The position numbers were made by a program, and so were the translations under genes. Under the pieces are notes generated by a model. That model was not told where the DNA came from. It saw only the letters and a list, made by a program, of their open reading frames with translations, and did no database searches. 4,483 nt of DNA, from IMG/VR virus record IMGVR_UViG_2706794668_000013; one strand, given 5' to 3'. Source of the stretch: a virus (lineage: Duplodnaviria; Heunggongvirae; Uroviricota; Caudoviricetes). Numbering within the stretch: the stretch's first letter is position 1; every line of letters begins with the position of its first letter. Shown here in pieces: positions 164 to 4,483 of the stretch.

Positions 164-192
164 GCGGCACGTTCCTGCATACGACGTGCCGC
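164..192. terminator. Perfect 9-bp stem / 11-nt loop hairpin located 8 nt past the last minus-strand stop codon; candidate transcription terminator or RNA stability element
   Basis: GCGGCACGT (164-172) pairs perfectly with ACGTGCCGC (184-192), 7 of 9 pairs G:C. No U-tract follows on the minus-strand transcript; the plus strand has a T-rich run after it (193-206, AGCTTCTGTTATTC), so it could equally terminate a convergent plus-strand transcript. Confidence 0.35.
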
Positions 193-200
193 AGCTTCTG

Positions 201-764
201 TTATTCCACGATAAAATTCCTAACCGAATTCAAATCCTTCAGACTATTCAGCTCTTCCTTCAGCTCCCGCTGACGGCGATAAATCTCGTCATTGCGCTCA
301 ACCTGTGCCTGAGCCATTGCTGCCGCCAGTTCTTCCAGTTCCGGCATCGACTGTTTCACCTGCTGATTATCGGCATCACCCCACGTCATCACGTCCCGTA
401 CAATGTCGGATTTCGCAGCCATTACCACCGGATAAAGGCGGCCCAGTGAGTTGGGGCCAGCATTCCAGATACGACCGTTCCATTCAAACGTGAACGGCTT
501 CGCCTCCTGTTCTGTGCGCCATGCTTCAATTTCCTGACGTCTGGCCTCTCTGGCCGCTTCCAGCATTTCTGGTGTCACAGTGAATGGGGCTATCTCACCC
601 CATTTGCCACTTTGCAGTTCCTGCCAGATTCGCTGACCCGTCGGTGCGACATCATCAGCGGTGGCTGTGTAGGGGACTGCCTGGTCCCTGTCGTCAAAAA
701 AAACGTCACAGTCTACTGCGCCACTTTCGGTATAACGGGGATTAATGATTTTTTTAATTTCCAC
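201..764 (-). CDS. Hypothetical protein, probably the assembly chaperone for the Stf-like fibre
   Basis: ORF open from 824 to the TAA at 201-203 with protein-like composition. Preferred start is the GTG at 762-764, preceded by GAGGAA with a 6-nt spacer and lying just after the upstream TGA (775-777); the first ATG at 822-824 would overlap the upstream gene by 50 nt and has no Shine-Dalgarno. Function is inferred from position (small gene directly 3' of a fibre gene), not from recognised homology. Confidence 0.6.
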   Translation of the reverse strand: MEIKKIINPRYTESGAVDCDVFFDDRDQAVPYTATADDVAPTGQRIWQELQSGKWGEIAPFTVTPEMLEAAREARRQEIEAWRTEQEAKPFTFEWNGRIWNAGPNSLGRLYPVVMAAKSDIVRDVMTWGDADNQQVKQSMPELEELAAAMAQAQVERNDEIYRRQRELKEELNSLKDLNSVRNFIVE

Positions 765-774
765 GGTGCATTCC

Positions 775-1899
775 TCACGATGTGCGAATAAAAAGCCCGG
801 GCATTGCGCCAGAGACATGAGCATCCGGCACCCCGGACAGGGCGCTATATGACCCCGGTAATGAATGCTCTGAACATCCCGTAATGAAAAATTGTGGGGA
901 TGCTATATACGTTCCGGTGGGAGTACTGGGCACTGAAATCCCCACCGGTCCCAGTCGTGAGCCTCTGTATGACTGCCCCCTGACAAGTCTGATGACTTTA
1001 TCACCGTCAGCTTCTCCCTGGTACGCAGCAATAATCAGCCCGCCAATGTCAGGGTCTCCCCATCTGTTGCAGACAGAGCTCGCCACGATTCTGTAAATAA
1101 TATCTTCTGTGGTTATATTTATTTTCACCCAGCCAGTCAGTCTGGATATGGGCCAGTAGCAGTAGCGGGTGTGATAAATGGGGCCGTTAATGCCGTAAAA
1201 AGTAAGGGATTTGGCTCTGTACCTCGGTTCTGTTGTCTCAGGGCGTGCATCAGTCCACCGGATGCTGAGCACCCCTTCAAACCGTGTGTCGGGTATGATG
1301 ATGTCGTAGGGGCCAGCAACGGAATATTCACCTGGCAGCGCATTCCTTACCCAGGCCAGGAAATCACTCTTAGTGTCAAAACGGATAACATCTTCAGGCA
1401 GAAAAGCACACCCAAAGCCGAATGCGCCGGGTATCGCCAGACGGCCTTTTGTCCGGTCGTAAATGTCGCTCTGTGCTTCCATCGTGGCCGCACTTTTCAG
1501 CCCCAGATTATCCTGCGCCGTCTGCTGTGCGTTTCCGGCTGCGGCCCCGGCGCTCTGCTGCGCCTGCGCCACCATTTCCTCAAAGCGTTTGACGACATCC
1601 GGTTTCAGGTCGCCCTCATCAGGAGCAATCAGAAAGTCATTCAGCGTGCCGGGCTTTGAGTCGTCGTATACAGCAATGTCGCCAACACAGTACTCGTCGC
1701 GCCAGTCCCGTTTCAGATACACGCAATATTTTCCGACCTGTGCCTCAAACGAATATTCACCGTTATTTCCGGTCACTACATCAGCCCTGGTACGCATCAC
1801 CACTTCTGAGGTGTTTACACGGGATTTCAGAATAATCTGGCATCCGGACATGGGGATGCCTGCGCCATCAGTCAGCGCACCTGATATCACTACAGACAT
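775..1899 (-). CDS. stf: Second tail fibre protein: lambda Stf-like N-terminal tail-attachment domain, Ala/Gln-rich linker, unrecognised C-terminal domain
   Basis: N-terminus MSVVISGALTDGAGIPMSGCQIILKSRVNTSEVV...YDDSKPGTLNDFLIAPDEGDLKPDVVKRFEEMV aligns by eye with the lambda Stf N-terminus (MAVKISGVLKDGTGKPVQNCTIQLKARRNSTTVV...YEDSQPGTLNDFLCAMTEDDARPEVLRRLELMV), i.e. the prophage tail fibre N-terminal domain. It is followed by an Ala/Gln-rich stretch (AQAQQSAGAAAGNAQQTAQ). A weak GAGA motif lies 7 nt before the ATG, which is 21 nt downstream of the tfa stop. Confidence 0.85.
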   Translation of the reverse strand: MSVVISGALTDGAGIPMSGCQIILKSRVNTSEVVMRTRADVVTGNNGEYSFEAQVGKYCVYLKRDWRDEYCVGDIAVYDDSKPGTLNDFLIAPDEGDLKPDVVKRFEEMVAQAQQSAGAAAGNAQQTAQDNLGLKSAATMEAQSDIYDRTKGRLAIPGAFGFGCAFLPEDVIRFDTKSDFLAWVRNALPGEYSVAGPYDIIIPDTRFEGVLSIRWTDARPETTEPRYRAKSLTFYGINGPIYHTRYCYWPISRLTGWVKINITTEDIIYRIVASSVCNRWGDPDIGGLIIAAYQGEADGDKVIRLVRGQSYRGSRLGPVGISVPSTPTGTYIASPQFFITGCSEHSLPGSYSALSGVPDAHVSGAMPGLFIRTS

Positions 1900-1922
1900 A
1901 GTTTTTCTCGCGATAAATTAAA

Positions 1923-2468
1923 TCAGGAAGAACCTTCCGGAGAGACGGACCATTCAATGGCGTTATATGAGGATTTATCAGTGATGGTGCTGAAATCCAT
2001 CGCCTGCAGCGATTTCGCGTAAATACGGTACGCTTTCAGTTTTTCCCGGTCTTCGTCGCTGATTAGCCCCAGCAGCAGGTCTTCTTCCCATTCCCCTGTC
2101 CGGGCACTGACCTGAGCCAGAAGGGCATCACGCTCATCTTCCGCTTTGAGTCTGTAGTCAAAGACAAATTCATCATTGCGGTAAAACCAGTAACCCGGCG
2201 CGGTAATGCGGCGGTTGGCGGTAATATCAGGAACTTCAATAACACTGGCGTTACGGGGTTCAATGCCTGTCACATCCTTACCGACCCACACCACGCGCCC
2301 GTCTCCGGTGTAAACCATTTTTATGGTGTCACTGGCAAAGTTCTTCTGTTCTTCATACCAGTTTTTGCCGTCTTCCGAAAAAAGCCAGGTGACATCATAC
2401 TGTTTTGTCAGCTGATATTATTCCGCGGTTTTCGGATTACCTGCCGTAATATTTTTTAAATGCAACAT
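1923..2468 (-). pseudogene. tfa: Tail fibre assembly protein (Tfa / Mu U-type chaperone) interrupted by a single in-frame TAA at codon 17
   Basis: ATG at 2466-2468, two nt after the fibre stop, encodes MLHLKNITAGNPKTAE then TAA (2418-2420). The same frame continues without further stops as YQLTKQYDVTWLFSEDGKNWYEEQKNF...EVPDITANRR... to the stop at 1923-1925. The intact family N-terminus, as I recall it, is MMHLKNI..NPKTKEQYQLTK, so the TAA sits where a conserved Gln (CAA) codon is expected. The longest uninterrupted ORF is 1923..2318 (131 aa, from an internal Met). Confidence 0.8.
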
Positions 2469-2470
2469 TG

Positions 2471-3511
2471 TTAAATACTCGCTACGTTATACCAGGTGCC
2501 ATTAATCAGTTTTTGCAGCGGTCGGTAATACACGCCGTTGACGTTATCCGCTGAGTTACGGCCGGTATCCGATATCGATATCCCTGACAGCCCGTGTCCC
2601 GAAGGTGAGCGAAATGTCCACGAAACGGTGTTACTGCCGGGGGGGTAATACATTTCATAACCATACCGCACATCCTGCACGCCACCATTTCGCTGCTGGT
2701 AACGGGCATCAAAGTTTCCGTAGTCTGACGGTGTTACCCGTCCTGTAACGTTTACAGCTTTATTACTCTGGATACTGCCACTCTGAAAACGCAACACATG
2801 CACGCTATTGGCATAAACATCCAGCAGGCCATCACCATTCTGTTTGAATCCGGTGTCATTATCACCAAGAACAATTGAATTCCCCCCCAGGGCGTTCTGA
2901 ACGCCGATACCCAGCGCACCATTGACCTGCGAACCACCGCCAACAGACACTTTATGCGACATGGATATTTCACCCGTCCGCAGATTAATGGTGAACGGGC
3001 GCAGGGGACCAATATCGCCATTTTCCCCCTGACCTTCACTGGTGGGAATAAGGTGCAGGCACTCTTCCGAACGACGAAAAATCAGGCCAAAAGCTTCGTT
3101 GAAAATCCTCAGCGCATTAACACCACGGATTTTCAGCTCTCCGGTCATGGTGTCGCCATCACGCTGAACGGCATTTTTTGCCTTATCCACCGTGGGTTTT
3201 AATCCGAGGTTTTCAACAGCCTCATCCCTGTCTTCCACATCCGAAAGGTTATTTTTTATCAGCAATGCCTCTTCGTTAATTGCACCGCCCACCAGCAATA
3301 ATATAGCCTTATATAGCTGGTCGTGTTCTTCTTTATTCAGTTCTATCCCGGCCTTCTCAATGACACCACAGATTTCCTCCTGAATGGCATTCCACATGGC
3401 ACTGTTCAGCCAGGTAGCAAGACGTCCTGTGCGAAGATTTCCGTCAGTAAATCCGTTCTTACCCGGACCAAACTTATCTTTTACCGCAGTCAGCGTATCA
3501 ATCCTGTGCAT
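2471..3511 (-). CDS. Tail fibre protein with a P2 gpH / Mu S-like C-terminal region
   Basis: C-terminal residues (NALGGNSIVLGDNDTGFKQNGDGLLDVYANS...RPLQKLINGTWYNVASI) closely match the conserved C-terminus of P2 H-type fibres (recalled as ...NALGGSSIVLGDNDTGFKQNGDGILDVYANS...INGTWYNVAQV). The internal motif VENLGLKPTVDKAKNAVQRDGDTMTGEL is the conserved fibre junction motif. Start chosen at the third in-frame ATG (3509-3511) because GAGG lies 6 nt upstream; the ORF is open from 3523 and ATGs at 3523 or 3517 are alternatives. The start overlaps the gp48-like gene by 14-26 nt. Confidence 0.9.
   Translation of the reverse strand: MHRIDTLTAVKDKFGPGKNGFTDGNLRTGRLATWLNSAMWNAIQEEICGVIEKAGIELNKEEHDQLYKAILLLVGGAINEEALLIKNNLSDVEDRDEAVENLGLKPTVDKAKNAVQRDGDTMTGELKIRGVNALRIFNEAFGLIFRRSEECLHLIPTSEGQGENGDIGPLRPFTINLRTGEISMSHKVSVGGGSQVNGALGIGVQNALGGNSIVLGDNDTGFKQNGDGLLDVYANSVHVLRFQSGSIQSNKAVNVTGRVTPSDYGNFDARYQQRNGGVQDVRYGYEMYYPPGSNTVSWTFRSPSGHGLSGISISDTGRNSADNVNGVYYRPLQKLINGTWYNVASI
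3194..3219. other. Sequence resembling a Gin/Hin/Cin/Pin-family invertase crossover site, embedded in the tail fibre gene
   Basis: GGGTTTTAATCC-GA-GGTTTTCAACAG. The right half matches the recalled hix half-site GGTTTTCAAGAA at 10 of 12 positions, the core is GA as in gixL, and the left half is a poor match (about 6 of 12). It encodes the conserved fibre motif VENLGLKP. Confidence 0.3.
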
Positions 3512-4088
3512 CTTCATCCTCATCTGGATAGGAAAATAAAACGACGGTGTGTGACGGACATAATTTATTAATCACGCACTCCGCAACCGTATCCCCCCAC
3601 GTCCGGATCGGTGTGTTGCAGGCGTCCGTGCATGTCTGCCACTGAGCACCGGCATCCATCGGCAACGTCACACGCCAGAAATAACGCCAGCGATCTCCCC
3701 ATTCCGGATCGGGGCTTGCATCCAAGTGCTGGAACTGTTCGATCGTTACGCCGGTATATCCCAGCGCCTCAAGCTGATCCAGGAAGAACTGCTCATTTAT
3801 GCCACCAGCCACATTGGCTTTTGCTTCAAGACGTTGCTGACGCTGGCGTAATGTCTGGGTTCCGACAGGGGAACAGGAATCAGGTAAACCATACAATTCT
3901 TCATAACGTTCAATCAGCTCTGTGGACTGACCGGGATCGATTTCAATCACCAGTTCATCAGCCCGCTGGTGAACACGCACAAGCGATGGTGCCAGACCGT
4001 CAAGTACACCGTCGGTATCTGACCATGCAGGCCCCGGCGGCATCAGTCCGTACAGCAGCTTTGTATAATCATCCTGTAACGAATCCAT
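3498..4088 (-). CDS. Phage tail protein of the Mu gp48 / DUF2313 (YmfQ-like) family
   Basis: 196-aa ORF whose N-terminus (MDSLQDDYTKLLYGLMPPGPAW...ELYGLP) fits the pattern I recall for DUF2313/gp48-like proteins. Start is coupled to the upstream stop (TAATG) and the gene sits directly upstream of a tail fibre gene. Confidence 0.85.
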   Translation of the reverse strand: MDSLQDDYTKLLYGLMPPGPAWSDTDGVLDGLAPSLVRVHQRADELVIEIDPGQSTELIERYEELYGLPDSCSPVGTQTLRQRQQRLEAKANVAGGINEQFFLDQLEALGYTGVTIEQFQHLDASPDPEWGDRWRYFWRVTLPMDAGAQWQTCTDACNTPIRTWGDTVAECVINKLCPSHTVVLFSYPDEDEDAQD

Positions 4089-4483
4089 TATTTACTCCTT
4101 GCCGGGTCATAAGCCTGCCAGGTGATCTCGCCGAGCACCGGAAGCTCGGTCTCCCCCAGGTCAATATCCGATGAAGGGACGATTAACCGGTGGGCCACTT
4201 CACCAGCAGACAAACTGATGGCCTCACTGATTCTGGACAGATACATACGCCCCTCTGGCACACCATCCCGTAACATCAGTGCATTCAGCTCTGCTTTTAT
4301 TGCAGTCCTGATCTGCGGTGTGTCTTTCGATAATGCAATCGTCATCGGGATGACTTTTTCTGTGGCACCGAATACATACAATCCGCTTCCGGCAACAGGT
4401 GCCAGAGGAAGGATGTGGTCCCTGACTGCGTTAATCACGCTTTCATCCGGGGCCGGGCGTTCCGGATCGTTTGTCGCCACCAT
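4088..4483 (-). CDS. Baseplate J-like protein (Mu gp47 / JayE-like), C-terminal part only; the 5' end lies beyond the window edge
   Basis: Minus-strand ORF open to the window edge; the ATG at 4481-4483 is probably not the true start. Its TAA stop (4088-4090) overlaps the ATG of the next gene (4086-4088) as TAATG, the usual arrangement upstream of gp48-like genes in Mu-type baseplate modules. Family assignment rests on this position plus general sequence character, not on a search. Confidence 0.7.
   Translation of the reverse strand: MVATNDPERPAPDESVINAVRDHILPLAPVAGSGLYVFGATEKVIPMTIALSKDTPQIRTAIKAELNALMLRDGVPEGRMYLSRISEAISLSAGEVAHRLIVPSSDIDLGETELPVLGEITWQAYDPARSK

Follow-up and report, generated by a model that had tools for sequence, protein, structure and literature searches.

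A four-gene tail-fibre module at the late-operon end of phiP27-like prophages, decayed in a Shigella sonnei remnant

In the Stx2e phage phiP27 (NC_003356), the closest described system, the prophage ends with genes for a gp48-like baseplate protein, a tail fibre, a Tfa chaperone, a second fibre with an N-terminal StfN domain and a small DUF4376 protein, in that order. The phiP27 genome was reportedly published in 2002 by Recktenwald and Schmidt, and its gene order is said to have stood in GenBank since. Here we analyze the same arrangement in a 4,483-nucleotide stretch of viral DNA (IMG/VR record IMGVR_UViG_2706794668_000013; the whole stretch is called the window below), which comes from a contractile-tailed, phiP27-like prophage of Shigella sonnei, at the distal end of its late (tail) operon. 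The arrangement is old, widespread, long annotated and already known. We consider it very probable that its four genes, for fibre 1, its Tfa chaperone, fibre 2 and the DUF4376 protein, constitute a conserved host-recognition module in intact relatives, and that the window holds a decayed copy of this module.

Structures and experiments from other phages bear on the second half of the module. The collar of Ur-lambda, which encircles the junction between the tube and the distal tail, is built of twelve StfN domains contributed by four trimers, and flexible linkers connect it to the trimeric shaft (PMC12617516). The Vibrio myophage XM1 carries six gp40 trimers on its neck, attached via a homologous immunoglobulin (Ig)-like domain (PMC10457771). 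Among DUF4376 proteins, gp27 of Alteromonas phage V22 has been found experimentally to be required as a fibre chaperone (PMC7289586, PMC10579305), and the fibre of the Campylobacter prophage CJIE1 requires the DUF4376 gene that lies downstream of it (PMC7882524).

Conserved order of the fibre and chaperone genes

All sizeable coding capacity of the window is on the minus strand, in six co-directional genes, and both the open reading frames and the two co-directional fibre/helper cassettes of different type that had been called in the original prediction are present. Fibre 1 (2471-3511; 346 amino acids), which belongs to the PHROGs tail-fibre family phrog_6859 (E = 5.5e-209), combines an N-terminus anchored on the baseplate with a distal part resembling Mu S; residues 122-345, the C-terminal two thirds of the protein, match the solved Mu fibre S (5yvq_A, E = 4.2e-25). 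Its start is placed at the ATG at 3511 (MHRID), as in relatives, and an upstream ATG at 3523 gives 350 amino acids. The following gene, tfa (1923-2468), comprises 182 codons for a Tfa (gpU-type) fibre-assembly chaperone and is a stop-interrupted pseudogene, whose remaining 131-amino-acid open reading frame matches PF02413 (Caudo_TAP, E = 7e-21); the pairing of a Mu S-like fibre with a Tfa-type chaperone is thus as originally assigned. Fibre 2 (775-1899; 374 amino acids), an accessory fibre of the side or collar type, matches PF08400 (phage_tail_N, E = 2.7e-63) and phrog_2636 (E = 3.4e-181) and is followed by the DUF4376 gene (201-764; 187 amino acids from a GTG at 764; PF14301, E = 6.9e-15). 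PHROGs annotations (tail fibre, tail fibre assembly protein, baseplate wedge) are concordant with those from Pfam. As to the intergenic gaps given earlier, the 10 nucleotides that separate fibre 2 from the GTG of the DUF4376 gene stand, whereas the spacer between tfa and fibre 2 (1900-1922), a conserved junction, measures 23 rather than 21 nucleotides.

The window is 89.5% identical in nucleotide sequence to phiP27 over 71% of its length, with the same gene order and overlaps (phiP27 L53-L57), and a near-identical (97%) remnant lies beside a frameshifted ipaH gene in E. coli FDAARGOS_944. The tfa-fibre 2 junction occurs in 105 of 5426 complete E. coli genomes. We also surveyed 72 IMG/VR loci that have the StfN subtype of the window and at least 5 kb of upstream sequence, spacer counts being taken from 69 loci with at least 7 kb upstream. 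The tfa gene is directly upstream of this StfN subtype in 63 of the 72, the 23-nucleotide spacer is identical at 53 of 60 junctions, and a DUF4376 gene follows the fibre in 46 of the 51 loci with enough downstream sequence. Relative to phiP27, all five genes have a ratio of nonsynonymous to synonymous substitution rates (dN/dS) of 0.08-0.23, and the StfN domain has one of 0.13.

The module stands behind two unrelated baseplate types, the gp47/gp48 type of phiP27 (15 loci) and the Rac-SA53/pPE4 type (39 loci). Both types encode a tail sheath (L44 in phiP27) and therefore have contractile tails; for pPE4/Rac-SA53, Pfam searches of the tail genes gave no sheath and PHROGs found it. Prophages of Yersinia similis and Salmonella keep the same order with baseplate proteins that are only 27-30% identical, and carry cargo genes exactly between cassette 1 (fibre 1 and tfa) and cassette 2 (fibre 2 and the DUF4376 gene) (survey loci L011, 6737-7738, and L012, 6650-7956). 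The cargo is a family-2 glycosyltransferase gene in one case, and a hexapeptide acetyltransferase gene plus an unidentified gene on the opposite strand in the other. These genes may be surface-modifying morons.

One reading originally offered for the tandem cassettes was that a recent modular swap was still under way and had yet to remove the old cassette. Inactivation of tfa and shortening of the fibre 2 shaft, both described below, could indeed resemble a cassette being discarded. However, phiP27 and numerous prophages of E. coli, Salmonella and Yersinia retain the order of the four genes intact, and the lesions are found in this Shigella lineage alone, alongside an IS1 element in the baseplate gene, which points to decay of the whole prophage. 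Because of the conserved order, the fixed spacer and the low dN/dS values, we rule out a swap in progress, a reading to which we would assign next to no probability.

Upstream of cassette 1 are two baseplate genes. The gp48/YmfQ baseplate-wedge gene (4088-3498 on the minus strand, that is, 3498-4088; 196 amino acids) is intact, matches PF10076 (Mu Gp48, E = 2.3e-25) and phrog_203 (baseplate wedge, E = 4.8e-73), and has a dN/dS of 0.08 relative to phiP27 L53; its end is overlapped by 14 nucleotides by fibre 1, which directly follows gp47/gp48. The baseplate J/gp47 gene is represented by its 3' part (4088-4483; the last 131 codons; PF04865, Baseplate_J, E = 3.5e-8), and its frame runs on past the window end. 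In some E. coli genomes, tfa is annotated directly before the DUF4376 gene and only the first bases of fibre 2 match; fibre 2 may have been deleted in these genomes.

StfN subtype and tail type

The lambda Stf-type N-terminal domain predicted for the 374-residue protein was confirmed when the proposed profile check was run: the PF08400 match covers residues 1-130 with 212.4 bits against a gathering cut-off of 26.6. A family profile of fibre 2 matches both Ur-lambda gpStfN (9e7m/9mgh, E = 7.7e-30) and XM1 gp40 (7kjk, E = 1e-14). In an AlphaFold2 (AF2) model of fibre 2, the mean predicted local distance difference test (pLDDT) score is 67, and about 80 in two folded domains. The first of these is the StfN Ig-like collar domain (residues 1-92; 1624-1899), whose model was matched by Foldseek to 9e7m_Ta (E = 3.6e-8, template-modelling (TM) score 0.92, root-mean-square deviation 1.4 Å over 94 columns, 45% identity) and to XM1 7kjk (E = 4.6e-7, 25% identity). 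The second is a C-terminal alpha/beta domain (residues ~165-374; 778-1407; pLDDT about 80), the presumed receptor-binding tip, for which a fold search against the PDB gave nothing significant and a weak match to the C-terminal domains of phage K gp144 (probability 0.44).

The genes upstream of StfN in IMG/VR divide by subtype. The P27-type StfN, to which the window belongs, has a contractile baseplate upstream in 54 loci, lambda J/Lom in 2 and neither in 16, whereas the corresponding counts for lambdoid-type StfN are 0, 72 and 3. In the two exceptions among the 72 P27-type loci, a lambda-J-like fragment lies upstream in place of the baseplate. All four phage records with this StfN subtype at >80% identity (two of phiP27, pPE4 and Rac-SA53) encode baseplates. 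The domain in the window is 45-58% identical to lambdoid StfN, with lambda and other lambdoid phages at ~45%. We conclude that the StfN domain is a tail-specific adaptor, present in the window as the subtype of contractile-tailed phages, and that the shaft and tip, together with the N-terminal part of the DUF4376 chaperone candidate, form an exchangeable cassette shared with lambdoid siphoviruses. This partition of StfN subtypes by tail type is the sole, and modestly, new point of our analysis. With these counts, and with a homologue of the N-domain solved on the neck of XM1, a Stf N-domain in a baseplate context can no longer be called the unusual mosaic that it first appeared to be. One of the phage records, 'Actinobacillus phage vB_Apl-pPE4' (PP818812.1), has a module 85-91% identical to E. 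coli prophages and Rac-SA53, and its stated host looks doubtful.

The exchange of tips raises the question of whether cassette 2 is simply a passenger, acquired when part of a lambdoid stf region recombined with the end of a contractile-tailed prophage and carried along without entering its virions. The fibre 2 tip and DUF4376 gene recur behind lambdoid StfN in J-Lom loci at up to 98% identity, the cassette is at the very end of the prophage (beside attR in phiP27), cargo genes part it from cassette 1 in Salmonella and Yersinia, and isolated fibre 2-DUF4376 copies are found near IS66 fragments and ipaH in Shigella. By contrast, the StfN subtype here is distinct from the lambdoid one and is found almost always behind baseplates, where the lambdoid subtype never occurs. 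Moreover, the 23-nucleotide junction is fixed across the two baseplate types, StfN has a low dN/dS relative to phiP27, and a fibre with a homologous N-domain is a true structural part of a myovirus (7kjk). We therefore regard a passenger cassette as improbable.

We propose instead that both cassettes would serve the virion in intact relatives. Fibre 1 would be anchored on the gp47/gp48 baseplate wedge, would present a Mu S-like tip and would be folded by the Tfa/gpU-type chaperone. Fibre 2 would be a trimeric accessory fibre, whose three StfN Ig-like domains, on flexible linkers, would take part in a ring (collar) encircling the tail or neck, the arrangement solved for Ur-lambda Stf and XM1 gp40. 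The product of the DUF4376 gene immediately after fibre 2 would fold the C-terminal receptor-binding domain of that fibre. Intact relatives thus probably carry baseplate fibres and collar-anchored accessory fibres on one virion. A virion with two fibre types, the other reading originally offered, is the better one for these relatives, given the conserved order of the four genes and the dN/dS of 0.08-0.23 relative to phiP27; it does not extend to the window copy, which is broken.

Alternatively, the two fibres could compete for the same site, with one type per particle, as a form of host-range bet-hedging that operates without DNA inversion. Alternative fibres are common in Mu, P1 and e14, and the genes here form one operon with no obvious internal promoter or strong terminator. 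However, the anchors are unrelated (phrog_6859 and phrog_2617 for fibre 1, the StfN collar for fibre 2), which argues for different docking sites; the StfN collar of Ur-lambda coexists with a central fibre (PMC12617516); and there is no invertase and there are no crossover sites. Competition for one site is, in our view, very unlikely. An invertible segment, with which the locus had also been compared, was rejected: the genes are co-directional, and an invertase, a gix-like site, a long inverted repeat and an inverted second copy are all lacking. Specifically, the window contains no gix-like site within three mismatches and no long inverted repeat, and no invertase or resolvase gene is present in the window or in the S. 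sonnei contig described below.

More broadly, we see roughly even chances that accessory fibres with the P27-type StfN constitute a lineage that forms collars and is adapted to contractile tails. Enterobacterial myoviruses of the phiP27 and Rac-SA53 kinds would then bear, besides six baseplate fibres, a second set anchored by a ring, perhaps docked on the neck as in XM1, and would trade the tip together with the DUF4376 gene with lambdoid siphoviruses. If this is true, StfN would be a portable 'universal socket' by which receptor-binding tips move between tail morphotypes. An StfN adaptor with a shared tip/chaperone cassette could help in host-range prediction and in the engineering of chimeric fibres, and the same picture points to a second fibre set to seek in cryo-electron microscopy maps of phiP27-like phages. 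The window itself is an ordinary locus of very little significance.

The DUF4376 gene and the fibre tip

The GTG start of the DUF4376 gene at 764 has a GAGGA Shine-Dalgarno motif 7 nucleotides ahead, and the resulting length of 187 amino acids agrees with that of homologues, which mostly have 187-188. An alternative ATG at 824 would give a product of 207 amino acids (824-201) and a 50-nucleotide overlap with fibre 2. The PF14301 match (55.9 bits against a cut-off of 25) covers residues 90-194 of the 207-residue form, that is, the C-terminal half. An AF2 model of the monomer has a pLDDT of 83.

The two halves of the protein behave differently with respect to the adjacent fibre tip. For 72 distinct locus combinations, each part was scored by its identity to the window. 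In 22 of the 23 combinations with a fibre tip identity of 85% or more, the N-terminal 65 residues of the DUF4376 protein match at 97-100%; with tip identities of 24-44%, the figure for these residues drops to 61-74%. The C-terminal half, by contrast, is ~81% identical whatever the tip. Identity of the N-terminal 65 residues is correlated with that of the tip (Spearman 0.67), from which the C-terminal half is decoupled. A tip-specific N-terminal part joined to a generic C-terminal part would be a modular pattern like that of Tfa-type chaperones, and the DUF4376 protein is the presumed cognate chaperone of fibre 2.

The C-terminal half of the DUF4376 gene in the window (201-569) is a rarer variant, ~81% identical to most loci whose tips are 99-100% identical and 98% identical only to survey loci L070 and L095. 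Because this rarer variant is present despite such near-identity of the tips, the alignments imply a putative recombination breakpoint inside the DUF4376 gene, near codon 65.

Several features lie at or beyond this end of the module. A perfect 9-bp hairpin without a T-run (164-192, minus strand; GCGGCACGT...ACGTGCCGC), read directly from the sequence 9 nucleotides past the DUF4376 stop codon, may be the operon end. It was not called in a terminator scan of the window, in which the terminator-like matches were weak 5-bp stems within coding sequence. Many Stx phages have, close to their end, unannotated sequence with ~81% identity to positions 81-350 of the window. Other fibre 2-DUF4376 pairs in Shigella and E. 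coli adjoin ipaH effector genes (survey loci L017, 9483-13492, and L002, 6150-7791); in L017, an IS66 transposase fragment ahead of the pair truncates the StfN domain.

The decayed window copy and known systems

The cassettes in the window had been described as complete, a description that three lesions overturn, one of them the IS1 element in baseplate J that is described below. First, an in-frame TAA nonsense codon occupies codon 17 of tfa (2418-2420), so that the window reads ...KTAE(stop)YQL... where a relative reads ...KTAEQYQL.... This codon is Gln (CAA) in the 97%-identical E. coli relative, and the frame is 182 codons long there, in phiP27 L55 and in the window. The open reading frame left from an ATG is of 131 amino acids only (2318-1923); the gene caller of the source record gave a tfa product of 162 amino acids with a CTG start at 2411. 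In Tfa-type chaperones the N-terminal domain is the fibre-binding one (PMC9608196), and a restart product of the interrupted gene would therefore miss part of the fibre-binding domain. Second, alignments to relatives place the junction of a 47-residue in-frame deletion at codon 130 of fibre 2 (1510-1512), in the shaft. Fibre 2 of E. coli and Shigella relatives is 421-467 amino acids long, the additional helical shaft lying between ...TAQD and NLGLKS..., and 47 residues are gone from the window protein relative to the 421-residue form (survey locus L002, 8545-9810). A pair of similar ...AQQ..(Q/R)D motifs flanks the deletion. Relatives differ widely in the length of the shaft, the whole of fibre 2 ranging from 374 to 1047 amino acids.

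The exact 374-residue fibre 2 is found in one NCBI assembly, the draft S. sonnei genome GCA_001249025.1. In its contig, the baseplate J frame continues for 102 nucleotides beyond window position 4483 and then meets an IS1 end (contig 1-83), which is 100% identical to IS1 copies. On the other side, the prophage end adjoins an operon for a metal transporter of the sit/ABC-3 type (contig 4669-8126), just below position 1 of the window. The sit-like permease gene is in three pieces and the transporter genes appear to be pseudogenes; uspF, ompN and ydbK come next, which is the Rac attachment neighbourhood. A promoter scan of the window found 0 sigma-70-like sites against 4.5 expected. Because IS1 interrupts baseplate J, tfa is stopped at codon 17, the fibre 2 shaft has lost residues and no promoter was found in the window, we conclude that the locus is a decaying prophage remnant. 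As a remnant cut by IS1 and with a nonsense pseudogene for tfa, it cannot build virions.

Some considerations weigh against a functional module with two fibre sets as we have described it. The surveyed loci are mostly closely related E. coli and Shigella prophages, so the counts given above are not independent events. The S. sonnei contig terminates within IS1, and any remainder of the prophage would lie beyond it. The presence of both fibres on one particle and the docking site of fibre 2 are points that we infer. In particular, the site at which Stf docks in lambda, the junction of the tube and the distal-tail protein, is covered by sheath and baseplate in contractile tails. With the lambda site buried, fibre 2 of phiP27-like phages would most likely dock elsewhere, the neck being the sole site with precedent; a search for a docking partner found no solved sequence relative for the phiP27 neck proteins L41-L43. 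For the DUF4376 protein, a chaperone role is suggested by family membership, gene position and co-variation with the tip, and this co-variation could be plain physical linkage of adjacent sequences. A fold search of the model against the PDB gave nothing meaningful (best E about 0.1), the DUF4376 profile had no sequence match in the PDB, and a relation to Tfa was not detected by hhalign (probability 0.1); the claim in PMC7882524 that DUF4376 corresponds to the Tfa C-terminus was accordingly not reproduced with these shallow profiles. Even so, we hold a conserved host-recognition module to be the best account of the four genes.

Known systems resemble different parts of this module. Fibre 1 and its gpU-type chaperone are of the kind found in Mu S-U and S'-U' (G segment), P1 C and e14 P. 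Invertible segments, however, swap alternative C-termini of a single fibre, whereas the locus described here has a second fibre with its own anchor. The V22 gp26/gp27 pair and the CJIE1 H-fibre resemble cassette 2 in that a protein of ~190 amino acids, with PF14301 in its C-terminal half, is encoded directly after the fibre gene. In contrast to fibre 2, the V22 and CJIE1 fibres are baseplate fibres of their own phages with unrelated sequence, and the need for a chaperone was tested for those proteins rather than for the enterobacterial one.

Fibre 2 itself resembles Ur-lambda Stf, with which it shares a homologous N-terminal Ig-like collar domain, a linker and a helical shaft, and which is also accessory to a primary adhesin. 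Lambda Stf, however, sits at the gpV/gpM junction of a non-contractile tail, is encoded after J-lom and has a Tfa (PF02413) chaperone, whereas fibre 2 belongs to a contractile tail, follows the Tfa of another fibre, ends in an unrelated alpha/beta tip and has DUF4376 downstream. Like fibre 2, XM1 gp40 comes from a contractile-tailed phage and attaches by a homologous Ig-like N-domain of ~100 residues; unlike fibre 2, it has 839 amino acids, its identity to fibre 2 is 25%, and attachment to the neck has been seen for gp40 only. In phiP27, finally, Tfa is intact at 182 amino acids, and L56, at 490 amino acids, has a longer shaft and a diverged tip and is 54% identical to fibre 2 overall. The IS1 truncation, the nonsense codon and the shaft deletion set the window apart from phiP27, with which it otherwise shares the order of its genes.

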